Virus record (IMG/VR): IMGVR_UViG_3300027732_000003
Coordinates: 1-40,767 of that record
Origin: a virus
Taxonomy: Duplodnaviria; Caudoviricetes
DNA length: 40,767 nt
Strand: one strand, 5' to 3'
Position numbers and translations under genes: made by a program. Below are positions 272-40,636 of the stretch, piece by piece (the first letter of the stretch is position 1; the number at the start of each line of letters is the position of its first letter). The notes under the pieces were generated by a model. The model worked only from the letters and a program-made list of their open reading frames with translations, was not told the DNA's origin and ran no database searches.

Positions 272-420
272 GTTGTTTGTTTGCAACAGGAAAAGTTTTA
301 GAGAAATTTCGGGAATGGGTGAGTGGGCCCCCCCTTTTTACGGGGCTTCCAGTGCTACCCCCCCCACTCTTCCCCAGCCGAAAAGGTGCAGGGCATACAG
401 TGGCAGGGTGAAAGGCTGGT

Positions 421-440
421 GCAAATGAGAATCATTCTCA
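421..440. promoter_or_regulatory. Fur box 1
   Basis: Perfect 7-1-7 palindrome TGAGAAT-C-ATTCTCA (426-440); 15/19 match to GATAATGATAATCATTATC. Confidence 0.75.
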
Positions 441-452
441 ACTAGGGGCTTT

Positions 453-471
453 GGTAATGAGAATCATTCTC
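453..471. promoter_or_regulatory. Fur box 2
   Basis: GGTAATGAGAATCATTCTC, 16/19 match to the classical Fur consensus; shares a 16-mer with box 1 at a 32 bp offset. Confidence 0.75.
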
Positions 472-524
472 GTTTAGGACGGCTCGAAGGGGCTCAGATA
501 ACCCCAGCAAGGGGCAGCGATCAC

Positions 525-537
525 AATCAAACTCTTA
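525..537 (+). promoter_or_regulatory. IHF consensus site
   Basis: AATCAA-ACTC-TTA matches WATCAANNNNTTR exactly. Confidence 0.5.
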
Positions 538-745
538 AAACGGCTCAGTGAATAGGCAAACCCAGCGCAAAGCCCCGTGAATGCTGGCATTGTGCTAGCA
601 AGGCAAAGCTAATCACTTATGACATTTAATGATGTAATGATGTGGCCATTAGATAACTATTAGACACAAATAAAAAGCCCTTGATTATTTTGCAATATTC
701 AAAATGTAAACGGCCACTGACCACAAAATGAGTACTGTAGTTCTA

Positions 746-767
746 AGGGTAAACCCTGATAGGGTTT
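746..767. promoter_or_regulatory. AGGGTAAACCCT palindromic operator-like site
   Basis: AGGGTAAACCCT overlapping the inverted repeat AAACCCT-GAT-AGGGTTT; related copies at 3-15, 6134-6147 and 8319-8333. Confidence 0.6.
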
Positions 768-782
768 TGGAGGGGTCAATAG

Positions 783-795
783 AATCAACAACTTA
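783..795 (+). promoter_or_regulatory. IHF consensus site
   Basis: AATCAA-CAAC-TTA matches WATCAANNNNTTR exactly; upstream of a TATAGT -10-like hexamer at 825-830. Confidence 0.5.
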
Positions 796-882
796 AGAGA
801 GTTGGCACGATTCTATTATGCTTATATAGTGAAGGCCTTGATTTTTAGCCTTCTCTTTTTAACCTAAGTCCGAAAGTAAACC

Positions 883-1083
883 ATGACCGATTCTCAAGCC
901 CTTTTAATTTGCCGTCATATTCAAGCCGCCAATTATGGAAGCTTTGTCAGCGCATTGTCTTGCGCTTATCTATTGGCCGATTCTGATAACCGCCTGAAGC
1001 TTCTAGGGGCCTTCTCAGATCTTTTTAGCAGAATTGAAGCCGATATGATCGCTTATGCTGAATTCACGGCTAAAGCCGTTTAA
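883..1083 (+). CDS. Early hypothetical protein
   Basis: 66 aa ORF preceded by the GTCCGAAAGTAA leader. Confidence 0.75.
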   Translation: MTDSQALLICRHIQAANYGSFVSALSCAYLLADSDNRLKLLGAFSDLFSRIEADMIAYAEFTAKAV

Positions 1084-1113
1084 ACCCTTTTTTAACAGTC
1101 CGAAAGTAATTAA

Positions 1114-1452
1114 ATGTCAAACTCAAACGTAAACCCCGTTTTCTCTTCTATTCTGGCCACTATTGGCGGCCCTTCCACTGATCTAGTGCTGGCCGTTGAT
1201 CAATTGGGGGCTTTGGATACTCAAATTAAAGCCCTTACTAAGCAAGCCGAAGCATTAAAAGCTCAGATTAAGGCTCAAGGTCCCGAGAGATATCTAGGCG
1301 CAGCATATAGCGCCCTAGTGTTTGAGAGTGAAGGTCGCACAATCACCGATTGGAAGGCTATAGCGGAAAAGTTTAACCCTTCCCGCCAATTGATCACGGC
1401 TCACACTGTAACGGGTGAACCCGTTCGTTCTATCAAGTTGGCCAAGATCTAA
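1114..1452 (+). CDS. Early hypothetical protein with coiled coil
   Basis: 112 aa; same leader; heptad segment VDQLGALDTQIKALTKQAEALKAQIK. Confidence 0.8.
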   Translation: MSNSNVNPVFSSILATIGGPSTDLVLAVDQLGALDTQIKALTKQAEALKAQIKAQGPERYLGAAYSALVFESEGRTITDWKAIAEKFNPSRQLITAHTVTGEPVRSIKLAKI

Positions 1453-1462
1453 GGGGCTCACA

Positions 1463-1672
1463 ATGAACACCAAAAACCTATCGTGGGCCCTTTTCGATAT
1501 TGCATTAGGCCGTGGATATAACGCACAAACCCTTCAAGCCGCCTACAGTAGCAAAGCCCTTGATATATACGATAAACGGGTTTTGCTTCGCTATATTGAA
1601 GGGGCTCAGTTATCAACTGATCATTTGAACCTACAAACCATTGCAATCAAATTGAATGAGATCACACCATGA
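1463..1672 (+). CDS. Early hypothetical protein
   Basis: ATG at 1463 after an AAGGGG RBS (track starts at 1415). Confidence 0.7.
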   Translation: MNTKNLSWALFDIALGRGYNAQTLQAAYSSKALDIYDKRVLLRYIEGAQLSTDHLNLQTIAIKLNEITP

Positions 1673-1752
1673 ACAAAGACGATATATATGACATTCTCGC
1701 AGCCGTGGCCGTGGGCCTAATGCTGGCCTTTTTTCTGACAATCAGGGGTTAA
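1669..1752 (+). CDS. Small membrane peptide (27 aa)
   Basis: MNKDDIYDILAAVAVGLMLAFFLTIRG; ATGA overlap with the upstream stop; one hydrophobic helix. Confidence 0.6.
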   Translation: MNKDDIYDILAAVAVGLMLAFFLTIRG

Positions 1753-1754
1753 AA

Positions 1755-1961
1755 ATGCACCAACTATCAGAACAACAAAAAGCTTTTATAGAAGCTTATT
1801 CACAATCAATTTGCGAGTGTCCAAAAAACCTATTGATAAAGTATTTTGAAGACTCAGAAAAGTTTGGCCGTACTTATAGGGAATATTACTCAAATGTTGA
1901 AGACTGTTATTCAGTTTGGGTTATGGCCCTTGAATACGCCAACAAAACAGTAAAAGCTTGA
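1755..1961 (+). CDS. Early hypothetical protein
   Basis: 68 aa; AGGGG RBS. Confidence 0.7.
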   Translation: MHQLSEQQKAFIEAYSQSICECPKNLLIKYFEDSEKFGRTYREYYSNVEDCYSVWVMALEYANKTVKA

Positions 1962-2010
1962 AGGGTTCAAGGTGAAGCGGCTCACAATGGGCCGTTTTTC
2001 CGTGGGCCTT
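1962..2010 (+). promoter_or_regulatory. Long intergenic RNA hairpin (possible processing site)
   Basis: GCGGCTCA/TGGGCCGT inner stem and AGGGTTCA/TGGGCCTT outer stem; G-U pairs work on the plus strand. Confidence 0.45.
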
Positions 2011-2037
2011 CCACGTTATCAAGTTGAAAGTAATTAA

Positions 2038-2685
2038 ATGATCAAAATCTCTCAAACTTCAAAATTGAATGCCCGTTCATGGTCTCTTCAAGCTTTAGAC
2101 ACTTGTCCTGGTTCATGGGCTTCGCCTGGTGTTCTGGTGGACGCTTGCAAGGGCTGCTATGCAACAACGGGAAATTATAATTATCCTAATGTGAAGGCCC
2201 CTAGAATCTCGAATAGGGAAGATTGGCAGCGGCTCGAATGGGTTTCCGATATGGTTCAAGAATTAGATTCTGACCGCTATTTTCGTTGGTTTGATTCTGG
2301 GGACGTTTTCACCCTAGGTTTAGCCGAAAAGATTCTTGAAGTAATGATACAAACCCCGTGGGTGAATCATTGGCTGCCCACCAGAATGCACAAATTCCCA
2401 AAGTTTGCCCACGTTTTTGCACAAATGGAAGCGCTGCCAAACGTGAAGGTTCGTTTTTCCAGTGATTCAATTCAAGGTGAATATATTGAAGGCCTTCACG
2501 GCTCAGTAATTGGCCCTGATGCGGCTTCATTTGTGGCCCGTAAAGGGGTTCAATTATGCGAAGCATACAAACATGGTGGAAACTGTAACGGCTGCAGGGC
2601 TTGCTGGTCTAAGGACGTGCCATTGATAGCGTATCCAGCCCACGGCCAGAAAATGGCACGGGTTATCAAGTTAAAGCAAATTTGA
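2038..2685 (+). CDS. GP88-family protein (Cys-rich, radical-SAM-like)
   Basis: SWSL..LDTCPG, CKGCYA, YFRWFDSGD, HWLPTR and C-terminal CNGCRACW motifs. Confidence 0.8.
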   Translation: MIKISQTSKLNARSWSLQALDTCPGSWASPGVLVDACKGCYATTGNYNYPNVKAPRISNREDWQRLEWVSDMVQELDSDRYFRWFDSGDVFTLGLAEKILEVMIQTPWVNHWLPTRMHKFPKFAHVFAQMEALPNVKVRFSSDSIQGEYIEGLHGSVIGPDAASFVARKGVQLCEAYKHGGNCNGCRACWSKDVPLIAYPAHGQKMARVIKLKQI

Positions 2686-2695
2686 AGGGTGAATT

Positions 2696-2815
2696 ATGCA
2701 AAGAACCTTAATTGAAGCTAAAAACGCTGGTTTTTTCATTCCTGAAATACAAACGTATTTTTGCAAATATGAAGACTTTAAAGTTGAACACATTGTTATT
2801 TACGAATTCCATTAA
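2696..2815 (+). CDS. Small hypothetical protein (39 aa)
   Basis: MQRTLIEAK...YEFH after a GAAGGGTG RBS; ends at the terminator. Confidence 0.5.
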   Translation: MQRTLIEAKNAGFFIPEIQTYFCKYEDFKVEHIVIYEFH

Positions 2816-2837
2816 AGGGCCTTAGGGCCTTTTTTTT
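2814..2837 (+). terminator. Intrinsic terminator of the early operon
   Basis: AAAGGGCC-TTAG-GGCCTTTT stem followed by a T run. Confidence 0.75.
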
Positions 2838-2853
2838 GTTCTTTAGATAGGCT

Positions 2854-3079
2854 GGCCTAGTGCTGGCTTTTTTTGGCCGTATAGGTCAGGGTTTATTGTG
2901 GCCGTTTGTTGGCCAGTGTAGGCCGTGGGCGGTTTACTGTATCGGGCCACCGATAACGGGGCATTGTGAGCCGTGGCCGTTTGCTGGGTGAATGCATAAG
3001 GCCGTTGATATCTGGCCATTGTGGGCCGTTTGTGGCCGCTGGCCGTGCCATTGTGGCCGTGAATTGTGCCATTGTGGCC
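2854..3079. repeat. Non-coding degenerate (CA)TTGTGGCCGT repeat array
   Basis: 14 GGCC sites in about 225 bp. Confidence 0.8.
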
Positions 3080-3160
3080 AGTGAAGGGGCTTAGACCTAG
3101 GCGGTAGCGTGAGATTTTGCTAATAAAAACAATGGTTTACAGTGATTTTTGAATGAAAAG

Positions 3161-3258
3161 GATTATATGAGATTCTATTTACCCATTAACTATTTGATTA
3201 TCTCGATTATGTCCCTGCCACTTTTCGATTATATCGATAATATTATGTCGATTATCTC
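3161..3258. repeat. GATTATNTC 9-mer direct repeats
   Basis: Copies at 3196, 3205, 3227 and 3250; degenerate copies at 3161, 3236 and 3241. Confidence 0.7.
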
Positions 3259-3328
3259 GTGTTCTGCCAATTTGCAAAGGACCCCCCCCTCAAAAAGTTT
3301 TGGGTCCTATTTTTTAGCATAGGGTTAA

Positions 3329-3688
3329 TTATGGAAATCTCAGGAGATAAAGTGTCGAATCTATTAAGGCTTGAATTTCATCGGCTATGTTCTGTATCTC
3401 AGAATCCTGCGGTAAAACCTTTCGTTTTTCCTCAAAGTACTCTGACAAATCATGCAGCTCACGTTTGCCAGTGTCGGCAGGTGTGTGATAGGTGGCAGGG
3501 AATTCTAGGGTTGAATCGTAACGGCCTTGAATGGCTTCCACTAGGTTGTCTATCAGGTCTGGTAGCTCTTCATAGAATGTCCCAAGGGCTTTATGCTCTG
3601 CATAAGACTTGGATTGCCAATGCAGGATGTGGGTGTTGGTTGCAGAGTGCAACAAGGTTAAAACGAGATCACCAATTTCATTGTCCAT
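3329..3688 (-). CDS. Ferritin/Dps-like helical bundle protein (DUF5856-like)
   Basis: HILHWQ..SYAEHKALG.FYE.L..LID.LVE motif resembles the Dps HW..H..E/D ferroxidase pattern. Confidence 0.7.
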   Translation of the reverse strand: MDNEIGDLVLTLLHSATNTHILHWQSKSYAEHKALGTFYEELPDLIDNLVEAIQGRYDSTLEFPATYHTPADTGKRELHDLSEYFEEKRKVLPQDSEIQNIADEIQALIDSTLYLLRFP

Positions 3689-4064
3689 ACGGGACTCCCA
3701 AGTGGGTTAAGACACGCCTAGCAGCTTCCCTGCGCCAAGGTTTGATTGTAATATTATCTGCCAAATCAAGCCATGCGTGAAGTTGTCTTTTGTAAGCTTC
3801 TTGAAACGCTAGATTTTTCTCATCATATTCTGCATAGGACGAGTCTAGCCATGTGTGGCATCTGCTGCACCCCCACACCGAATAGTGGTCTTCTGCCTTG
3901 ATTGAGCGCCCTTTGCCATGGCTCAAAAGGTTAGAGTGACAAGCCACTGTTGTGGAACCATCCCCCCCCAAACAATTTTTGGCCACCTCTAAAAGGCAAG
4001 GCTCACCTTGTGCCAATTTCAACAGATCTTTGTCTCTGTAATATTCAGTCTTTTGGTAGGTCAA
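3678..4064 (-). CDS. DUF1364/YbcO-like putative nuclease
   Basis: PCLL, TTVACHSN, HGKG..IKA.D and GCSRCH.WLD motifs. Confidence 0.75.
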   Translation of the reverse strand: MTYQKTEYYRDKDLLKLAQGEPCLLEVAKNCLGGDGSTTVACHSNLLSHGKGRSIKAEDHYSVWGCSRCHTWLDSSYAEYDEKNLAFQEAYKRQLHAWLDLADNITIKPWRREAARRVLTHLGVPYGQ

Positions 4065-4156
4065 AATGGCGAATCCTCATGGTTATCAGGATTAAATTTA
4101 GCCTTGCGCTGGTCTTTGTGCTTGGGGTTGGGAAATGGTGGGAATGGCCATGTCAT
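4061..4156 (-). CDS. Small Pro-rich peptide (MTWPFPPFP...)
   Basis: 31 aa; overlaps both neighbours by 4 nt. Confidence 0.5.
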   Translation of the reverse strand: MTWPFPPFPNPKHKDQRKAKFNPDNHEDSPF

Positions 4157-4359
4157 GCTTGTCCTCTTTCCCTGATCAAATCCATTTGGACATATCCAGT
4201 AGAATCTTCCAGAATTTGAATTATTTCATTGCGTTCATACTCTGCTATCAGCTTGGCAAAGTTTGTAATTGTGTCTAAGCCATGCAATTGGAATTGTCGA
4301 TCTGACAACTGCCCACCGCCAGCTTTGTTCACCATGCGAATGATGTCATCTCTGTTCAT
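4153..4359 (-). CDS. Hypothetical protein
   Basis: Likely start MNRDDIIRM at 4359, overlapping the upstream stop. Confidence 0.65.
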   Translation of the reverse strand: MNRDDIIRMVNKAGGGQLSDRQFQLHGLDTITNFAKLIAEYERNEIIQILEDSTGYVQMDLIRERGQA

Positions 4360-4673
4360 AACTTCATTTCCACTCGTTTTGTGTACTCTTCGGTTTTCCA
4401 CACTTCCACCCGTAGCTTGGCTGCCTCAAGTTTCCAACGTAATTCTTCTTCTTGGGCTATTGCTTCTTTGATCTCAAAAAGTAGGCCAACATAGTCTGCA
4501 TGGGCGTAGGCGTACATCTCTTTTGCGCCCAATGTGCCCTCCTCGTTTGACATAAGAATGGCCTTTTTGGACTTGCGATATTCCTCTAATTGCACCCGAG
4601 TAGCTTTAGCTGCGGCATATTTAGGTGCGTTTGTAAGGATGAAATTGATTGCTAAGTGTGCGGGATTTTCCAT
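4356..4673 (-). CDS. Conserved helical phage protein (weak resemblance to UvsY-like mediators)
   Basis: 105 aa coiled coil, EMYAYAHADY; the function is inferred. Confidence 0.6.
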   Translation of the reverse strand: MENPAHLAINFILTNAPKYAAAKATRVQLEEYRKSKKAILMSNEEGTLGAKEMYAYAHADYVGLLFEIKEAIAQEEELRWKLEAAKLRVEVWKTEEYTKRVEMKL

Positions 4674-4942
4674 TACATTGCCTCGTTGATTAACTTTTCT
4701 ATGCCTTTGTCGATGCTGCCATCGCCCATTTCAGCCAAAACTTTCTTTTGGACTGCATTGAGTTCTATTTTTACTATGGTGTTATAAGGTAGATATCTAG
4801 GTCTACCTGCGCCCTTGCGCTTACCACCCCAATCAAGTACAGGTCTGCCAAGCTTTTGGGATAGGGCTTCTTTGCGCCTTTGCTCCATGATTTCCCATGC
4901 TTTTTCCAGCACTTCGGGCGAGAGATTGTCCATAAAACTCAT
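4673..4942 (-). CDS. Small DNA-binding protein
   Basis: WGGKRKGAGRP motif followed by a ribbon-helix-helix-like segment. Confidence 0.55.
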   Translation of the reverse strand: MSFMDNLSPEVLEKAWEIMEQRRKEALSQKLGRPVLDWGGKRKGAGRPRYLPYNTIVKIELNAVQKKVLAEMGDGSIDKGIEKLINEAM

Positions 4943-5397
4943 ACGATCTCCACTACCCTGTCGTTATTGGATCTGATGTAGTCACGGGTTTTCTTTACAT
5001 ACTTCTCAAACTCACTTCGGCAAATACTGCCTTGTTGAAGGTCTGCATATTCGATTAATTCCCTGATTGCTTGAATGCCAACACCATCAAAACCCATTTT
5101 CATGGTTGCCTGGTAACGCATGGCCGCCTTGTGCAGGGCATCTTGCGCTTTCTCACATACAGGCAATACTTCGGGACCAATACCCGCTTTGGCCATGACC
5201 TCAGATAGGTTAAGCACATCAACTAGGGTGCGCCAATCCTGCACTGTACCTGCGCCTTTGGTCATTGCGTCCAATGCGGAATATTCTGTCATTCTTAGCT
5301 TGTCTAAGGTTTGCCTAGGGGTGATGGCAGCCCCCACAATCCCATGTTGGATTGGGTCAATCAAGTTCCACATTTTGCGTTTAGTGCGTTTACGCAT
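4939..5397 (-). CDS. Hypothetical protein
   Basis: Likely start MRKRTKRK at 5397. Confidence 0.7.
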   Translation of the reverse strand: MRKRTKRKMWNLIDPIQHGIVGAAITPRQTLDKLRMTEYSALDAMTKGAGTVQDWRTLVDVLNLSEVMAKAGIGPEVLPVCEKAQDALHKAAMRYQATMKMGFDGVGIQAIRELIEYADLQQGSICRSEFEKYVKKTRDYIRSNNDRVVEIV

Positions 5398-5575
5398 TTT
5401 TAACTTGGTTCTGTCTAAGGTATTTGCCTGTGATCCGCTTGTTCCAACACGATTGGCAGATCCACTTATGTCCCATGTCAATCCCACCTTCAGGGGGCTT
5501 GCTTATGTCGCATTTTGTACAAAGCTTAAACCTGTGATTAGAGAATCTTGCACCAATGTCTATTTGTGGCATCAT
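5390..5575 (-). CDS. Small zinc-finger protein
   Basis: CTKC...WICQSC. Confidence 0.6.
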   Translation of the reverse strand: MMPQIDIGARFSNHRFKLCTKCDISKPPEGGIDMGHKWICQSCWNKRITGKYLRQNQVKNA

Positions 5576-5577
5576 TT

Positions 5578-5757
5578 TTATTTCCTTGCAGGGCAATTTC
5601 TGCCTTGGTTACAGTTGCCATAGCATGGGGGGCAGACCTTTAAATTCCGAATGAGGATAGCAAAGCTTGAAATTGTGTCTTTGCCAAAAACAGTCATTTT
5701 TTCAATTTCTTTGGCCACTTCTTCTAAAGTGTCATTTCTTGATTGGTTTTCAGTCAT
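5578..5757 (-). CDS. Hypothetical protein with Cys-rich tail
   Basis: Likely start MTENQSRN; CPPCYGNCNQGRNCP. Confidence 0.6.
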   Translation of the reverse strand: MTENQSRNDTLEEVAKEIEKMTVFGKDTISSFAILIRNLKVCPPCYGNCNQGRNCPARK

Positions 5758-5840
5758 ATTTGCCTTGCAATGTAGATAACCCATGACCAAAAGGCCATGA
5801 GCATTGAGAGTATGGCTGCCCATACAAATTTAGTATTCAT
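5754..5840 (-). CDS. Small membrane peptide
   Basis: MNTKFVWAAILSMLMAFWSWVIYIARQI; ATGA overlaps on both sides. Confidence 0.5.
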   Translation of the reverse strand: MNTKFVWAAILSMLMAFWSWVIYIARQI

Positions 5841-6073
5841 GGCTCGTAGTTCACGATTTCCCAATGACGTTGGGTTTCAATGGCTAAAACGCCTTTGGCT
5901 TCAAGGTCAGCAAACTGCTCTTCAGTCATCAAACCCATAATGTCCATGCCGTTGTAGGTGACCATCTCAATGTTTTCAGCCCAAGTTGAATACTTGTCTG
6001 CCTTGAAAGACATAGTGACTTTGACTTCTGCTTCACCTGCGCCTGTTTTGGCTTCAAAATTGATTGTGTGCAT
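5837..6073 (-). CDS. Hypothetical protein
   Basis: 78 aa; AGGAGAAAGTA leader; own upstream promoter region. Confidence 0.75.
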   Translation of the reverse strand: MHTINFEAKTGAGEAEVKVTMSFKADKYSTWAENIEMVTYNGMDIMGLMTEEQFADLEAKGVLAIETQRHWEIVNYEP

Positions 6074-6133
6074 TACTTTCTCCTAAAAATGTGTTGATGT
6101 AGCTACTGTATCTTGAAATCTTGATTATTTATA

Positions 6134-6147
6134 TAGGGACTTACCCT
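6134..6147. promoter_or_regulatory. AGGG..CCCT operator-like site
   Basis: TAGGGACTTACCCT, upstream of a TACAGT -10-like hexamer on the minus strand. Confidence 0.5.
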
Positions 6148-6575
6148 TATTCCAGTTCTTCTTTGACCATAACCTCAACCATGCCAATAGTGCCGTAAAC
6201 CTTGGTAGCATGAAGTGAAACTACTAAGCTATCGTCCACAAACACAATGCCGTTCATGCCATCAAATATTGCTTTGCAATAATTATCAATGTCACTTTTC
6301 TTGGTTGGGCGCTCTTGGCCTGATAAACAAGCCTGTGTGCGTTTTTTACTGTATGAGGCTGGAACAGGCAGGGTTATGTAGATATAAGCTCCTACAGGCG
6401 TTTCTAGAGGCTCTGAAGCACCCATTGCAAGCTTTGCCGATTCTGAAACCTTAGACTCGTAATCAACTGTGGTTTTTGGACTGTAAGTTGAGACAAATTT
6501 GCCCCGTCTAGCAAACCTAGGTCTGCCTTTAGGTACTGGTGTGCCATCCACCATAAATGTGACCATAAATGTCAT
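6147..6575 (-). CDS. rusA: RusA-family Holliday junction resolvase
   Basis: PVPKGRPR, K.DIDN..KAIFDGMNG and DDSLV motifs. Confidence 0.9.
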   Translation of the reverse strand: MTFMVTFMVDGTPVPKGRPRFARRGKFVSTYSPKTTVDYESKVSESAKLAMGASEPLETPVGAYIYITLPVPASYSKKRTQACLSGQERPTKKSDIDNYCKAIFDGMNGIVFVDDSLVVSLHATKVYGTIGMVEVMVKEELE

Positions 6576-6784
6576 TCAAGGGTTCCTTCTCTCATTTGGG
6601 CCATATAAGTTCTTATTCTGTCTCTAGCACCGCTGCCATATATGCGTTCTGCTCTTTCAAGCCTAGCTCTGATAAGGTCCCTGTTTTGGGATGATTCCCA
6701 ATTGCGGTACAGCTCACGAGCTTCTGCTTTTTCAAGGATGACTCTGTCGCTAGGGTTCTCAATTGTTTTTCTGCTGTAGGTCAC
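6572..6784 (-). CDS. Hypothetical protein
   Basis: 70 aa ORF coupled to rusA. Confidence 0.6.
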   Translation of the reverse strand: MTYSRKTIENPSDRVILEKAEARELYRNWESSQNRDLIRARLERAERIYGSGARDRIRTYMAQMREGTLE

Positions 6785-6878
6785 CAGTAAGCTCCAAGGC
6801 CATCAGTATGATTTTTTCAGGGTAAGGCACTCCATCCCTTACCTTGTCCAAGATTCTCATTGCGTCAGCGTGTGTCAT
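6759..6878 (-). CDS. Small hypothetical protein
   Basis: MTHADAMRILDKVRDG...ALELTGDL, 39 aa, ATGA overlap. Confidence 0.55.
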   Translation of the reverse strand: MTHADAMRILDKVRDGVPYPEKIILMALELTGDLQQKNN

Positions 6879-7048
6879 TTGGCTTCCCTAACACCATTCA
6901 TTTGCTCAAAAATCCAATCCTCTTCTAAATCATCAATTAACTTTTCTAATTGGTTTTCAAGATTTTTTATTCTTTTTTCTTGTTCATCAAATCGATCTAC
7001 AACATCTTTAACAAATTGACCTACAAGTTCCCATTCTTCTTTTGTCAT
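6875..7048 (-). CDS. Small acidic coiled-coil protein
   Basis: MTKEEWELV...REAK, 57 aa, ATGA overlaps. Confidence 0.55.
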   Translation of the reverse strand: MTKEEWELVGQFVKDVVDRFDEQEKRIKNLENQLEKLIDDLEEDWIFEQMNGVREAK

Positions 7049-7803
7049 GCTTTTCTCCTGTAAGAGTTAAGAATTGCTCGTTCTTCGGGTGTTGGTGGGC
7101 GTGTTGTTTTTTCATCTGCCTTAATCTTCTCTAAAGCAGGGTCGGGCAGGTTGGATGGGGCAACAGTAACTCTGACAATGTCGGCAGGATTCATCTTTGG
7201 GGCTTTTTGGTTTCTCACCCAATTACGCCAAGTGGCTGCCCAATCCAACTTCACCCCATCTTTGCCAGGCTTGGCACACCAAAAATCTTTAAACTGATCT
7301 GCTACCTGCATGGCATTCAAATCAGGTCTTTCCTTGTTAGCCCAATATTCCCATTCGTTTGGCAAAACCCAATCATTGGCGAGGCGCAAGCCACGCTTAC
7401 TATTCTGTTTCTTATCTGTATCTGTATCTGCTTCTGTATCTATAGCGTTACTTGGACGTTTCTGTAACGTTTCATCAGTGTTACTTGGTTGTTTCTTTTT
7501 ATCACGATACTTGCGAACCCGCATGGTGCTTGAGTCTGAGACAAATTGACGTTTGTCCCAATTCAAAATGTTCCAGTGTTTATCAATAAAGTTTTTGCTA
7601 ATAAACAGTTGTTTTGTTTCTAGCAATTGCGCCTCATCTAAACGCAATTGAAAAGCAATCTCTGTTTCATGTAACGTTTCAAGTACTTCACTACATCTAA
7701 GGCATAAGAGCATGACATAACGTCTTTGCATTGCCTCTGGAAGCATTTGAATTTTGGGGTCGTGTGCGAACTCTGAATAGAGTCTGAACCATGGGTTAGC
7801 CAT
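7045..7803 (-). CDS. Phage replication initiator (replisome organizer type)
   Basis: N-terminal WFRLYSEFAHDPKI, central DTEADTDTD linker and C-terminal F.DFW...K.DW.ATWRNW. Confidence 0.85.
   Translation of the reverse strand: MANPWFRLYSEFAHDPKIQMLPEAMQRRYVMLLCLRCSEVLETLHETEIAFQLRLDEAQLLETKQLFISKNFIDKHWNILNWDKRQFVSDSSTMRVRKYRDKKKQPSNTDETLQKRPSNAIDTEADTDTDKKQNSKRGLRLANDWVLPNEWEYWANKERPDLNAMQVADQFKDFWCAKPGKDGVKLDWAATWRNWVRNQKAPKMNPADIVRVTVAPSNLPDPALEKIKADEKTTRPPTPEERAILNSYRRKA
7413..7488. repeat. Intragenic repeats, putative replication origin
   Basis: TATCTG x3-5 (7413-7442), GTTACTTGG x2 (7447, 7480), TGTAACGTTTCA (7463, also 7670); lambda O-type origins lie inside the initiator gene. Confidence 0.45.
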
Positions 7804-7833
7804 AATGTGTGCCGCTTTTTAAACACCCTTGAA

Positions 7834-7900
7834 GGAACTTCCAGCAGGAGAAGGGATAACTCTTTTCGGGTGGGTAATTAGTCCAACCTAGCTGGGTTCC
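7834..7900 (-). ncRNA. Structured 5' leader of the initiator gene
   Basis: GGAAC/GTTCC plus CCAGC/GCTGG closing stem enclosing two hairpins. Confidence 0.45.
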
Positions 7901-7908
7901 ATAATACA

Positions 7909-8106
7909 TTATTTAGGACTACGTTTCAAGCTTCTCATCTTGGTCGTTGAATGTCCAATGTGAAAAAACCCACAAGATGGACATTTGTAGATCTGAAAAG
8001 AATTATCTCTTTTTTTGTTGATTGTGGAATTGGCTATTAAAAAAGTGGGGAAGGGGTGCTTGCCCACGCATTGAACAGCAGGATCGAACTTATCGGTTGT
8101 TTTCAT
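7909..8106 (-). CDS. Small zinc-ribbon protein
   Basis: C.GK ... YKCPSCGFFHIGH. Confidence 0.65.
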   Translation of the reverse strand: MKTTDKFDPAVQCVGKHPFPTFLIANSTINKKRDNSFQIYKCPSCGFFHIGHSTTKMRSLKRSPK

Positions 8107-8282
8107 TGATACATACCAAAAATATTAATTGGGCGTTCGACATGAAGCTCTAAAGCTTTGGCTATTAAACCAACCATGGCAGCATCTCGGTCGTCAGGAC
8201 GTTGGTTGTAAGTTATAACTAAGTTATAGGCGTAAGCAAGTAATGCTTCAGCACAGGCTTGTTCGGATTGTTCGATGTTCAT
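8103..8282 (-). CDS. Hypothetical protein, probably leaderless; first gene of the leftward operon
   Basis: MNIEQSEQAC..., 59 aa; extended -10 TGCTAGTCT 7 nt before the ATG; no SD. Confidence 0.6.
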   Translation of the reverse strand: MNIEQSEQACAEALLAYAYNLVITYNQRPDDRDAAMVGLIAKALELHVERPINIFGMYQ

Positions 8283-8384
8283 GCCGAGAAGACTAGCAGA
8301 TATTTAAAAATCACATACTAGGGAAAACCCCTATGTTTTTATTTTAAAAGCCATGGCACATTAAAGGTTCTCAAGGAGAAAGTA
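8283..8384. promoter_or_regulatory. Divergent promoter region with a central TAGGGAAAACCCCTA palindrome
   Basis: Genes diverge at 8282 and 8385; palindrome at 8319-8333. Confidence 0.65.
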
Positions 8385-8585
8385 ATGGCAACACTAAACG
8401 GCAGAAAAGTTATCGACATCGAAGTGGATGGTGTCGATAGTAGGGATTATCCTGATTTCGCAGATGCGTACTTCAGTTACGCTTGCTACGAAGATGGCAC
8501 ACCACTTACAGATGAGGAACTAGTCAAACTAGCCGATCAGAATGGTGATGTCCTCTTTGACAAAGCATACGATTCACTTCACTAA
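8385..8585 (+). CDS. Small acidic protein
   Basis: 16 D/E against 5 K/R in 66 aa; AAGGAGAAAGTA leader. Confidence 0.8.
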   Translation: MATLNGRKVIDIEVDGVDSRDYPDFADAYFSYACYEDGTPLTDEELVKLADQNGDVLFDKAYDSLH

Positions 8586-8597
8586 GGAGAAAGTAAA

Positions 8598-8762
8598 ATG
8601 ATGAGCATGGAATTTACGAAAGTAATTGATGTTGAACTTGGTTCAATTGCAGAGATCTCTTCAGGCATCTACAGAGAACTGACTATCCGCACAAAAGATG
8701 GTGACATCAGAATCACTCTTGTTGCTGAAAGTGATGAGTCAGAAATTAAGATTTTATCTTAA
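8598..8762 (+). CDS. Hypothetical protein (54 aa)
   Basis: MMSMEFTKV...; AAGGAGAAAGTA leader. Confidence 0.7.
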   Translation: MMSMEFTKVIDVELGSIAEISSGIYRELTIRTKDGDIRITLVAESDESEIKILS

Positions 8763-8772
8763 GGAAAAAGTA

Positions 8773-8943
8773 ATGAACACACACGCACTCAAGTATGTCC
8801 GTCAATTGTTTCAGACATATGATGCACCCCCCCAAACAATTCGCAGCTACCAACGTCAATGGATTCGCTCTGTGCGTTATCTTGGCGACAATTGGTTGTT
8901 AGCCAAGAAAGTTGAACGACTTGAAACTCCAAAGCCTAATTGA
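8773..8943 (+). CDS. Hypothetical protein
   Basis: MNTHALKYVRQLF...; AAGGAAAAAGTA leader. Confidence 0.7.
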   Translation: MNTHALKYVRQLFQTYDAPPQTIRSYQRQWIRSVRYLGDNWLLAKKVERLETPKPN

Positions 8944-8959
8944 GCGCCAAGGTGATATC

Positions 8960-9157
8960 GTGAACAACTACATCATCGAATACAAAGAAGAGTACGCCCA
9001 CACAAAGTACTGCCCATATTGCGTTCAGCCCAAAGGACAAAAGTTTGTCTGCTGCGGTGAGATGGATTGGGTAGATTTCAAAGACCTTGATGACAACACT
9101 CAATTAGAGATCATTAAGGAAGAATATGACAATGCATTCAAAAACCACAAGGTATAA
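8960..9157 (+). CDS. Small zinc-binding protein
   Basis: YCPYC...CCGE; GTG start after AAGGTG. Confidence 0.6.
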   Translation: MNNYIIEYKEEYAHTKYCPYCVQPKGQKFVCCGEMDWVDFKDLDDNTQLEIIKEEYDNAFKNHKV

Positions 9158-9158
9158 C

Positions 9159-9728
9159 ATGACAGTAAATGATTTACTTAAGCTTGATGTAAACAAGAAC
9201 ACAGAGAAGAAAGGTAACCTGACCTATCTTTCATGGGCTTGGGCTTGGGCAGAAGCTCTTAAAGCAGACGCTAATGCCCACTTTCAAGTAATGATGTTTG
9301 GCGACAAATGTTATACCGACATAAATGGCACATATATGGTTTGGGTAACAGTCACTATGTTTGGCAAACCAATGACTTGCCAACTGCCTGTTATGGATCA
9401 CCGCAACAAGGCTATTCAACACCCTGATGCGTTTGCAGTGAATACGGCCATCATGCGTTGCATGACAAAGGCTTTAAGCCTCCATGGTCTAGGTTTGTAT
9501 ATCTATGCGGGTGAAGACCTGCCAGAGCAGGATACAAGTCTTGTAGATGCCGTTGTGGCAGCTATTAAGGAAAGATACGAAGCAGGTGATGAGCCTGGTA
9601 TGTATGGCGAATGGGAATCTATTACAGATAACGAAGTTCGTCTTAGGGTTTGGAATACGCTAAGCCCTGATAGTAAAGTAAGGTCGGCTATTAAAGCCTA
9701 CAAAGAAAAAATGAAGGAAAGCAAATGA
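9159..9728 (+). CDS. Sak-type single-strand annealing protein (DUF1071)
   Basis: LTYLSWAWAW, LPVMD.RN and RC..KA...HGLGLYIYAGEDLP motifs. Confidence 0.88.
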   Translation: MTVNDLLKLDVNKNTEKKGNLTYLSWAWAWAEALKADANAHFQVMMFGDKCYTDINGTYMVWVTVTMFGKPMTCQLPVMDHRNKAIQHPDAFAVNTAIMRCMTKALSLHGLGLYIYAGEDLPEQDTSLVDAVVAAIKERYEAGDEPGMYGEWESITDNEVRLRVWNTLSPDSKVRSAIKAYKEKMKESK

Positions 9729-9997
9729 AACGATTAGATGCAGTTGCCACAGTAGGCGAGTACAAAGACAAAAAAACTGGTGAAACAAAAAAACGCTATT
9801 CCAAATGTGGATCAGTATTTATTGATGATGAAGGCAATATCTCATTCAAAATTGATGTGTTGCCAGTTCATAGTTGGGATGGATGGATCAATGGAAAAGA
9901 ACCATTTGATGGTGAGAAACCCTCCCGTCAAAGTTCTGCACCCACCCGCAAAGGTGGCAATGGATTTGATGACATGGCAAATGATGTGCCGTTCTGA
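9725..9997 (+). CDS. Small SSB-like protein
   Basis: Follows the annealase; acidic C-terminal tail FDDMANDVPF. Confidence 0.7.
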   Translation: MKRLDAVATVGEYKDKKTGETKKRYSKCGSVFIDDEGNISFKIDVLPVHSWDGWINGKEPFDGEKPSRQSSAPTRKGGNGFDDMANDVPF

Positions 9998-10004
9998 TTA
10001 AAAC

Positions 10005-10079
10005 GGGGGAAAAGCGGATGCTAATTGTTAAGTCGAGGCTTTTTTAAGATCGCATCAATTAGACGTAGCGAGTACCCCC
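10005..10079 (+). ncRNA. Structured intergenic RNA with a loop-E-like internal loop
   Basis: GGGGG/CCCCC closing stem, AAAA/GAGTA internal loop and CTAATTG/CAATTAG stem. Confidence 0.55.
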
Positions 10080-10103
10080 ACCCAATTTTTTAAGGAGAAA
10101 GTA

Positions 10104-10403
10104 ATGATAGATTTGTTTAAACTGTTCCGTAAAGATGCTAAAGACACTTCAGTAGAAGCCGCCAAAAGCATCATGCTTGCCCTGCCAAACATTGAGGGGG
10201 CAGTCTATGAATATGCAGCCATGCGTGGCAGTAAAGGATTCACAGACGATCAAATGAATGAACACTTCCAAACCCACAAATCAACTTACAGAGCTAGACG
10301 TTCTTCTTTGGTAGAAAAAGGATTGATTGAAGATTCTGGAGTTTGTGTAAAAGGTCCTAATGGCCGTAACATGACTGTATGGAGAATAGTATGCAATTTC
10401 TAA
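10104..10403 (+). CDS. Winged-helix DNA-binding protein
   Basis: GFTDDQ..., RARRSSLVEKGLIEDSG and GRNMTVW pattern. Confidence 0.65.
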   Translation: MIDLFKLFRKDAKDTSVEAAKSIMLALPNIEGAVYEYAAMRGSKGFTDDQMNEHFQTHKSTYRARRSSLVEKGLIEDSGVCVKGPNGRNMTVWRIVCNF

Positions 10404-10597
10404 TAGATCTATTCTCTGGCCAAAGTTATACAAAAACTGACACCATGTTGATCAACCAAAATGGTGATGTGTTTAACAAGATTGGTGATAACTACATCGA
10501 CAATGAAGGCACATTGATGACCAAGATTGGCAGTGACTATCTCAATACCAAAACTGGAATGATGTCTAGCTTTGATGACCCATTCTTAGATGATTAG
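10391..10597 (+). CDS. Hypothetical protein with short internal repeats
   Basis: N.NG....KIGDNY / NEG....KIGSDY repeats; likely start at 10391. Confidence 0.6.
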   Translation: MQFLIDLFSGQSYTKTDTMLINQNGDVFNKIGDNYIDNEGTLMTKIGSDYLNTKTGMMSSFDDPFLDD

Positions 10598-36439: not shown

Positions 36440-38032
36440 TTATATCCTTTGGACTTTACCTTCAGGCACATCAATTCGCCTAAAACTAAAGTTATTTGCC
36501 CTACTCACTACGGATTCACCATGGCCTTGAATCAAAGCTAATATGCCAATACGGGCAGAGTCAATATGATCGTCAGGATCAGAAAACTTACCCGCATCGT
36601 CAATAGCGTAATTCCGAGCCTCATCAAGAAATGCCTTGCATGACTCGTTAATCATAAAAGATTTACGTTCCATGCCCATCCGCATTATATTGATTCCATA
36701 GGCTTTGTGGTTAGTTACTTTGCCTTGATCGTTAGGTGGGTTTAATATAGCACCTGAAATACAGTTTAGTCCATAGGAATCTTCAAAAACTTCCCGAACT
36801 GATTGTTCTGTCAAAGTGTATCGACCTGCTAAACCCGCATCATGGGGTAGGGCAATAGGCACATCCCGAGTTTCCCTGTCTAGCAAATAATGCACATATT
36901 CATCCGGTGTTTCACCGCTAGGGATTGTAATTTGCTTATGGAGATAAATGATTTCTTCTACAGGATTCCTGAAAAAGAAAGAAATAACAGTAGGGTCATT
37001 CTTAATCCCCAAGTCAAAGCTAATCAAACGCTCTAGCTTTTCATTGTGTCTCAGCTCAATGTCTTCAGACTTGTAAGTAGGCCATTCAAGCAATGGGAAC
37101 ACCACGCCTTTGCCAACCAAAGGAATGCCATTTATACGGCAGTCTCTTTCCCAAGGCATAAAGTCTCGGGCTAATTGTTCTCGTTCCTTTTTGGGAAAAA
37201 AAGATTCTCCCCATTCGTTTTCGTAAGGGATATCGTCCCAAGTAACCCTGATGTGGGAGTAGCCGTCAATGTTGTCCCAAAACTTTCGGACAAGTCCCGA
37301 TAGACCTTTAAGTGGAGTGAACGAACAGATAACCTGCCCGTTTCTAGACGCTGTACGAACAACGAGTTCTGAGAAAGTCTCATCGGGTGGCTGCTCGTCA
37401 AGAACCACGAGGTCCAACTCAAAACCCTGCAAATGCCGGACTTGTTGGGTGTAGTTGGAGAAGTAAAGCTTAGACTTTCCTCCAGACTCATGCCAAATTT
37501 CGATGGCCAAGACGTTAGCTCCATCTGTTCGGATTGACTTGTCATCAATGGACTCCCTTGGAATAGAACCCGTTCCCAACTTGTAACTTTGCTTAATATC
37601 GTCACAACCTAATAATTTGGATTGTAAAGTCTTAGCAACCTGTTCCCAAGATTCGCCTGAACACATGGCAATGATGGGCTTGTCCCATCTTACGCCTTTC
37701 CAATCTTTGGGATACCGACCTGTTAAATGGTAGGCAGTCTCATAAGTTGAAGCAATTGTTTTTCCTGCACGATTGGCGGCAATCATTCCTCTACGGGAAA
37801 ACTTAGCGCCCATGTCAAAGAATTTTTTCTGATACTTAAACGGCCTAAACCATTTCAAAGTATTGAACTGCATATCTTGGGCAATTTTGTCTCTAGCAAC
37901 TTTCATTGCTCTGAGTTGCTCGGCAGAAAGATTCTTAACTTGATCTTTACCGCCAGCCAATTTAACCAAGTGTTTTATCGCCCTGTCTTTGTACAGAGGA
38001 AGGATATAGTCACTGGCTTCACTTTTTGCCAT
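36440..38032 (-). CDS. terL: Terminase large subunit (P22 gp2-like)
   Basis: Walker A AANRAGKT, Walker B LDEQP, FTPLKG, SFDLG and DDHIDSARI motifs. Confidence 0.93.
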   Translation of the reverse strand: MAKSEASDYILPLYKDRAIKHLVKLAGGKDQVKNLSAEQLRAMKVARDKIAQDMQFNTLKWFRPFKYQKKFFDMGAKFSRRGMIAANRAGKTIASTYETAYHLTGRYPKDWKGVRWDKPIIAMCSGESWEQVAKTLQSKLLGCDDIKQSYKLGTGSIPRESIDDKSIRTDGANVLAIEIWHESGGKSKLYFSNYTQQVRHLQGFELDLVVLDEQPPDETFSELVVRTASRNGQVICSFTPLKGLSGLVRKFWDNIDGYSHIRVTWDDIPYENEWGESFFPKKEREQLARDFMPWERDCRINGIPLVGKGVVFPLLEWPTYKSEDIELRHNEKLERLISFDLGIKNDPTVISFFFRNPVEEIIYLHKQITIPSGETPDEYVHYLLDRETRDVPIALPHDAGLAGRYTLTEQSVREVFEDSYGLNCISGAILNPPNDQGKVTNHKAYGINIMRMGMERKSFMINESCKAFLDEARNYAIDDAGKFSDPDDHIDSARIGILALIQGHGESVVSRANNFSFRRIDVPEGKVQRI

Positions 38033-40606: not shown

Positions 40607-40636
40607 TTATACAGAGTTATCCACAGGCTATCCACT
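40607..40636 (+). promoter_or_regulatory. DnaA box cluster
   Basis: Perfect TTATCCACA at 40617-40625, flanked in phase by TTATACAGA (40607) and CTATCCACT (40628). Confidence 0.55.

Follow-up and report, generated by a model that had tools for sequence, protein, structure and literature searches.

A word-depleted, exchangeable early-gene cassette as candidate first-entering DNA of a freshwater podovirus-type phage

Structure and Gene Content of the Cassette

The window analyzed here (the whole 40,767 nucleotides, nt, of IMG/VR record IMGVR_UViG_3300027732_000003, Caudoviricetes) is a circular assembly from freshwater metagenome runs, and its 127-nt overlap leaves a complete phage genome of 40,640 bp. 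Near its left end (~328–3281) lies a plus-strand operon of seven open reading frames (ORFs), divergent from the late genes and convergent with the replication block. This cassette has sharp boundaries, its content is exchanged between relatives, six four-letter words (CATC/GATG, CTCC/GGAG, and CCTC/GAGG) have been lost from it by synonymous changes, and its composition is shifted like that of the DNA of phage T5 that enters the host first.

The C-tracts that a first-pass annotation had reported at both borders are present (C7 at 328–334, C8 at 358–365 and C8 at 3282–3289) and form parts of two longer motifs kept in relatives; further C-tracts occur at 3962–3969 (C8) and 8827–8833 (C7). The left boundary motif (291–365, plus strand) comprises A/T tracts, GGGCCC with C7, and then CCAG-TAC with C8. 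It was aligned in seven genomes, and 34 of 38 related records (six picked by motif scan) show its core pattern. The right boundary motif (3279–3307, plus strand), GGA with C8 followed by an A/T tract, was recognized in 34 of the 40 terminase-anchored loci with enough flank (16 with a strict pattern, 17 by eye, and one other). The left motif is a putative terminase cut site and first-entering genome end, since the left end of phage LUZ24 also starts with a C-tract; the right one would be an entry-pause or second cut signal.

The operon is preceded by a non-coding leader (366–882, plus strand) with a sigma-70-like promoter match at 802–830 pointing into the cassette; it fits 10 of 12 positions, a weak signal, as nine sites were found vs. 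6.7 in shuffled sequences. A palindromic element at 744–762 has a second copy at 2–20. To the bin 601–900, which holds this element, other phages contribute a very high contig depth (1,651 at most, in run X4), and therefore the element or its surroundings are widely shared.

The principal gene (2038–2685, plus strand) encodes a GP88-family protein (PF17338, phrog_1392), hereafter gp88, with seven invariant cysteines and a predicted partial barrel. Cysteines C23, C37, and C40 are invariant, with spacing different from CX3CX2C. The gp88 model (predicted local distance difference test, pLDDT, 73) had no Foldseek match at E ≤ 0.001, and the best result of a fold comparison was weak (Z 4.8, root-mean-square deviation 4.2, 153 aligned); six of the 15 top rows were radical S-adenosylmethionine (SAM) enzymes, and gp88 is possibly radical-SAM-like. 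Type I, IIG, and III restriction systems and bacteriophage exclusion (BREX) systems use SAM, and phage T3 destroys it; a SAM-directed role for gp88 would be a guess. The GP88 family has 6,631 hits, and no paper on the function of gp88 was found in the literature searched, which took in few subscription papers. In MW202796, a phage of another type, an ArdC gene comes after gp88.

The 112-residue protein (1114–1452, plus strand; 72 homologues), with a predicted long helix and beta-sheet (pLDDT 82), belongs to a family found in 19 of 40 cassettes. Matches to an exonuclease (Foldseek, E 3.5e-3) and to Cas4-like proteins (PADLOC, E 1.6e-4) suggest a weak resemblance to the C-terminal part of phage Cas4/YqaJ-type exonucleases; neither this model nor that of gp88 has a clear match in PDB. 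No family was assigned to the other plus-strand ORFs: a 66-residue ORF at 883–1083, with homologues in 8 of 81 gp88 loci, three small ORFs at 1463–1672, 1669–1752, and 1755–1961, and a 39-residue ORF at 2696–2815.

A hairpin resembling an intrinsic terminator (2814–2840, plus strand) closes the operon. It is followed by a non-coding spacer (2841–3278, plus strand), which is G/T-skewed, dense in GGCC, contains decayed short repeats, and is, like the operon, purged of the six words. The bin 400–200 nt before the right motif has a mean GC skew of +0.29 and AT skew of −0.47 over 13 nearest-subclade cassettes. No RNA genes were found, and the spacer had no Rfam match near threshold. Short repeats of GATTAT type lie just inside the right motif (3196–3260 in the window; also in loci L056 and L060). 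Judging from its sequence, a minus-strand promoter match at 3270–3242 could give rise to antisense RNA over the spacer.

Word Depletion and Excess

Between 380 and 3280 the six words occur as first counted (CATC 0, GATG 3, CTCC 0, GGAG 1, CCTC 0, and GAGG 1), in total five vs. 46 expected from the rest of the genome. The flat expectation of about 11 each was too simple, since the frequencies elsewhere in the genome lead to 16.9, 11.0, 4.3, 4.8, 5.2, and 3.8, respectively, and the nearest outside match, given earlier as 36, is replaced by matches at 35 and 38. No other of the 136 four-letter pairs is as strongly depleted in any window of 2.9 kb as CATC/GATG is here (p 3e-10), while CTCC/GGAG and CCTC/GAGG taken alone reach p ~0.001 each; 2.9-kb windows clear of the segment contain 28–73 of the six words. 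The depletion withstands control for codons: synonymous shuffles of the seven ORFs gave 21.0 words vs. one observed, and none of 3000 was as low. Gene by gene, observed and shuffled counts were 1/18.3 in the segment, 97/112.9 in other early genes, and 457/528.2 in late genes. The avoidance is specific to context, as CATC is absent but CATT occurs 22 times, and GAGG occurs once but GAAG 25 times. It extends to the ribosome-binding sites, as GGAG or GAGG precedes none of the seven cassette genes vs. 13 of 40 others, numbers too small for significance.

The strongest anomaly, overlooked in the first-pass annotation, is an excess: GGCC occurs 39 times in the segment vs. 5.2 expected, eightfold (p 2e-21). 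Six-base palindromes, which Type II enzymes usually target, are also numerous (59 vs. 26.3, twice the density elsewhere). Since this count is close to the level of dinucleotide shuffles (49.8), it is mainly the flanks that avoid palindromes, while the segment does not. Single-strand folding was rejected as a cause of the palindromes, there being no excess (mean z −0.49 in nine windows inside vs. −0.55 in 49 outside). BREX and Type IIG sites follow a rule of A at the fifth place; as an account of the missing words it was rejected as well, with 11 of 27 absent hexamers fitting, about as by chance, in a set from 17 cassettes of which four had been chosen for depletion. Genome-wide, CGCG is missing and CCGG nearly so, which suggests Type II pressure from the host.

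Exchange and Recoding Among Relatives

Relatives were collected as 79 gp88 loci and 80 terminase loci, with additional motif scans. The limits of 45 distinct cassettes, falling into 32 sequence clusters, were determined, and four with a miscalled right edge were dropped; the remaining 41 measure 1,853–3,435 bp. Unrelated cassettes are found in phages with 96–97% identical terminase. Exactly one GP88/DUF7227 gene, of four types and never two together, is present in 35 of 40 cassettes, which encode 63 protein clusters. One cassette without gp88 carries a sliding-clamp-like protein (L096:4573–5208; PF02767, E 6.5e-7).

Among the 13 nearest-subclade cassettes the density of the six words steps from ~4–6 per kb inside to mostly 17–24 outside the motifs, with single low outside bins of 5.8, 6.5, and 9.6 per kb; at the right motif the step is from ~4 to 17–23 per kb. 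The depletion ends within 200 nt of each motif and includes the non-coding spacer, so the proposal of sharp limits at the C-tracts is borne out. Depletion is also seen in a second cassette family (7/35, 8/48, 9/49, and 15/34), which has no more than 261 nt in common with the window. An independent set of 22 was formed from one cassette per cluster, leaving out three clusters homologous to the window, four miscalled, and three with less than 4 kb of flank. The six-word ratio in this set had a median of 0.67 (range 0.13–1.33) and was below 1 in 16 of 22 (p 0.052). The predicted bounded depletion in relatives thus extends to the nearest subclade, but the six words are not depleted clade-wide; which words are lost is lineage-specific. 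Common to the cassettes is a shift in which mixed asymmetric words decrease, G/C-only and A/T-only words increase, and palindromes increase (22 of 22). The favored G/C word is GGCC in the window, GCGC with GCWGC in the second family, and CGCG in others.

A second phage group (L002, L004–L010, and others) has a different virion module, a gp88 90–96% identical, and a related C-tract motif upstream. Depletion is weaker there (gp88 6.7 vs. 11.6).

Word loss was traced in 47 close gp88 genes (77–93% nucleotide identity), using site-word pairs that recur in at least three of them. The window keeps one of 23 such pairs, and 17 of 22 losses are synonymous. Of the polymorphic six-words its gp88 keeps 1/18, vs. 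513/1543 for other words (Fisher p 0.010). No flank of low density was found among 55 loci (minimum 16.5 per kb), the core being below the flank in 53 of 55. A donor genome of the same composition was likewise absent from these 55 loci. The synonymous losses and the lack of depleted flanks favor ongoing regional selection, i.e., recoding in place, over a foreign donor.

The same variation is open to another explanation, a fast-turning, moron-like accessory cassette whose words reflect its own history, codon or ribosome-binding preference, or local mutation instead of entry order, and whose motifs serve transcription, packaging, or recombination. Content and word bias vary among phages with 94–97% identical terminase (L096 49/42, L101 75/56), co-occurring strains switch cassette, one of them joining 594 to 3146 around other DNA, gp88 is shared across virion modules at the high identity given above, and the near-chance palindromes look like DNA unadapted to host Type II enzymes. 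Such a history does not account for word losses that are synonymous and context-specific, for the purging of the non-coding spacer, or for a T5-like shift common to unrelated cassettes; the missing donor composition and the lack of excess folding speak against it as well, and we consider it unlikely.

Similarity to First-Entering DNA and Position of the Genome End

The T5 record contains a 10,219-bp repeat annotated as entering first, and its 4-mer shift was computed against 26 kb of other T5 DNA. The shift of the window correlates with that of the repeat at 0.38–0.40, with the genome-wide maximum at the cassette; the values for the early end of phiEco32 and for the Ab15 repeat are 0.31 and 0.25. 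The correlation with T5 is positive in all 22 independent cassettes (median 0.31, minimum 0.05), while flanks of the same size have medians of −0.05 (18 windows) and 0.00 (22), with a maximum of 0.21. Since the T5 repeat itself is rich in GCGC (55/5) and CGCG (29/6), the excess of G/C palindromes is compatible with first entry. The T5 repeat has no general excess of 6-bp palindromes (14.6 vs. 12.4 per kb).

The large terminase subunit (36440–38032, minus strand) is similar to those of LUZ24/PaP3 and Kuravirus and adjoins SU10-type portal, capsid, and adaptor genes (PF23899, PF17236, and PF24175). It had been described as P22-like, but is nearer to LUZ24/PaP3 (31–33% identity, ~210 bits, the best cultured matches) than to P22 (27–28%, ~130 bits); identity to Kuravirus is 29%. 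ORF 38207, considered for the small subunit, lacks similarity to LUZ24 gp68. Recorded repeats lie at the divergent late/early junction in LUZ24 (184 bp), phiEco32 (193 bp), and Phriendly (105 bp), and this position, together with the C-tract start of LUZ24, makes the left motif the expected end.

The first-pass annotation had also considered a long terminal repeat. The whole segment (~328–3281) would then be a long direct repeat, with both motifs as cut sites and the left copy entering first, as in T5. The layout of T5 is the same (operon, terminator, non-coding injection-stop region, repeat end, and converging genes). In the record of Acinetobacter phage Ab15, a terminator and spacer precede the C-rich run that ends a 5,018-bp repeat, and gp88 is present in this block in the Ab15 relatives Bestia, AM24, and Mithridates. 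A GG(G/A)C7 core occurs in both motifs in the same orientation and nowhere else in the genome (7 of 100 shuffles reach two such sites), and redundancy would explain the relaxed avoidance of palindromes (17.1 vs. 12.9 per kb in Ab15). On the other side, depth was ~1x in eight runs and not doubled, which fits a single copy, although this is weak evidence: the runs contain mixed strains, the DNA fraction is not stated, contig (unitig) depth does not equal copy number, and a repeat would be masked by replicating DNA. Identical unitigs had depths inside vs. outside of 9.6–11.3 vs. 10.1–16.4 (X1), 27–31 vs. 35–47 (X2), 91–92 vs. 91–119 (X3), 39–44 vs. 35–69 (X5), and 10–14 vs. 9–28 (X7). No true second copy of a cassette was found in 38 records; a 45.5-kb record with two left motifs (G002, locus L148) has two different end cassettes (71–79% alike) and is probably an assembly chimera of two strains. 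In addition, the nearest cultured terminases make short repeats, and a long repeat in the window has only a modest chance of being correct.

Proposed Role in Genome Entry

The best explanation is that the exchangeable early-gene cassette is single-copy DNA entering first from a predicted fixed end near 328, to which we give about an even chance. With both end models taken together, the segment is probably first-entering DNA, with putative ends, a putative pause, and a putative anti-defense function. The sharp bounded depletion, the conserved motifs, the junction position as in cultured relatives of the terminase, and the T5-like shift all point indirectly to first entry. Precedent for the effect of restriction sites in such DNA is experimental. 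In the available part of PMC12455610, Type I motifs are described as mattering for Murciavirus phages in the first-injected region and not elsewhere; the available part of PMC10644984 reports that T5-like phages resist Type I–III systems unless sites lie in the repeat, and that the repeat border is non-coding and repeat-rich. The available part of 10.1101/2025.04.03.647016 deals with plasmid leading regions and names codon adaptation as another possible cause.

In the proposed mechanism, the terminase would package along the direction of late transcription and cut at the left motif to give a short repeat like that of LUZ24 or phiEco32, and the cassette would hence be packaged last and ejected first. 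Host RNA polymerase would transcribe inward from ~830 to the terminator at 2814–2840. Entry may pause around the spacer and right motif, as the next genes face the other way. If only cassette DNA were exposed during the pause, sites of Type I, IIG, III, or BREX-like systems would be costliest there, and selection by restriction-type defenses would remove asymmetric A-containing words from the cassette. G and C would then gather in G/C-only words tolerated by the lineage (GGCC here, GCGC or CGCG elsewhere). The cassette proteins, with the GP88-family enzyme as near-constant cargo, would blunt such defenses, maybe, speculatively, by consuming or binding SAM.

Several observations weigh against first entry from the left motif. 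Of 28 terminase-side contigs, six end within this motif, but breaks in the assembly where conserved DNA passes into variable DNA can produce such stops. A complete record of 42,837 bp (G001) starts and ends at the right motif without overlap, and neither the contig stops nor the opening of this record separates genome ends from assembly breaks. Six of the 22 independent cassettes contain the six words as densely as their flanks or more so, and the coding DNA of the independent set shows no depletion of CATC or CCTC (ratios to shuffled 1.02 and 0.87, vs. 1.15 and 0.75 outside). Palindromes are 1.1–3.4 times denser inside than outside in all 22, a contrast that is lacking in the leading ends of LUZ24, phiEco32, and T7 and weak in T5. 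The shift of the window correlates at −0.07 with the first 3 kb of T7 and at 0.11 with LUZ24. No named anti-defense family was matched by the seven window proteins or the 53 cassette families of relatives; known inhibitors (Ocr, Ard, and SAM lyase) had no sequence or fold match among cassette proteins. Finally, a Sak gene without a DNA polymerase is reminiscent of P22-type phages, which pack by headful.

An end or pac site at the right motif (a cos-like end or P22-like headful start), by which the cassette would be packaged first and enter last or randomly, agrees with G001, the distant identity to the P22 terminase, and the Sak/Erf recombinase, but is very unlikely, as G001 is a single record, none of 26 loci anchored on the neighboring Dps-like gene stops at this motif, permuted ends would not yield a sharply bounded depletion (according to the available part of PMC12455610), and the word shift matches known first-entering DNA.

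In its most far-reaching form the proposal would be that a large clade of 40-kb freshwater podoviruses without polymerases of their own has a miniature T5-like two-step entry. A 2–3 kb plug-in cassette between two cis-signals would enter first, recoded by each lineage against asymmetric-site defenses of its host, with palindromic sites tolerated or displayed, and one interchangeable GP88-family iron-sulfur enzyme would disarm SAM-dependent defenses before the rest enters. We regard this complete scenario as improbable, somewhat less likely than the accessory-cassette and long-repeat models. If first entry is true, word composition alone would mark first-entering DNA in uncultured phages, the clade would offer a bounded set of candidate anti-defense genes (63 protein clusters from 40 cassettes with a single GP88 slot), and the missing words would predict methylated motifs of the host. 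The host is probably betaproteobacterial, the clue being a single 2.4-kb contig of a metagenome-assembled genome; a methylome paper was not found in the literature searched.

Other Features of the Genome

The late genes, including the SU10-type families, occupy the minus strand from ~40,480 to 10,594. Replication and recombination genes span 3329–10597, with family matches to DnaD-like, RusA, HNH, and Dps-like proteins at 3329–8106 (minus strand) and to Sak at 9126–9728 (plus strand); the cassette is thus not the only early-looking operon, as had been stated. No polymerase, integrase, or methyltransferase family was detected among 59 ORFs scanned.

A perfect 9-mer of DnaA-box type (40617–40625) lies in non-coding DNA upstream of the late operon, beside A-tract arrays, and is kept in the nearest subclade. 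The non-coding stretch 1–324, left of the left motif, is strongly kept in the nearest subclade but not in more distant members; it has no Rfam match and is a candidate small RNA or origin.

Comparison With Known Systems

The principle itself has already been published for T5, T7, and Murciavirus, while the literature searched contained no account of this clade's plug-in cassette with its two motifs and single GP88 slot. The first-step-transfer (pre-early) DNA of T5 and BF23 resembles the cassette in its inward early operon, terminator, non-coding spacer, boundary and converging genes, in a correlated 4-mer shift by which G/C-only words become more and mixed words less frequent, and in a sharp compositional boundary. 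The cassette is smaller (2.9 vs. 10.2 kb), contig depth is not doubled, the virion genes are of podovirus type, the content is freely swapped, and the excess of 6-bp palindromes is stronger; no family of the second-step-transfer genes A1/A2 was detected among the seven ORFs (PHROGs, Pfam, and NCBIfam).

With the early-injected region of T7 and Murciavirus (Autographiviridae) the cassette shares small host-interaction genes behind a host-type promoter and, going by the available part of PMC12455610, a variable early region where restriction motifs matter most. The window phage differs by the lack of a phage RNA polymerase or Ocr match, by next genes that face the other way, by a second conserved motif closing the zone, and by a shift unlike that of the first 3 kb of T7.

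LUZ24/PaP3 (Bruynoghevirus) and phiEco32/SU10 (Kuravirus) have a related terminase, SU10-type portal, capsid, and adaptor, and the divergent late/early junction, and LUZ24 also the C-tract at the left end. Their early genes, however, continue one way without a closed cassette, and they encode DNA polymerases, whereas the window phage has lambdoid-type replication genes. Regarding the AM24-like Acinetobacter myoviruses (Ab15, Bestia, AM24, and Mithridates), nothing on the genome ends of AM24 was found in the available part of PMC8878043. In the Ab15 record their block forms a terminal repeat of 5 kb, and virion and host are unrelated, but they share with the window phage a plus-strand early block with gp88 in three members, a terminator, a G/T-rich spacer, and a C-rich boundary.

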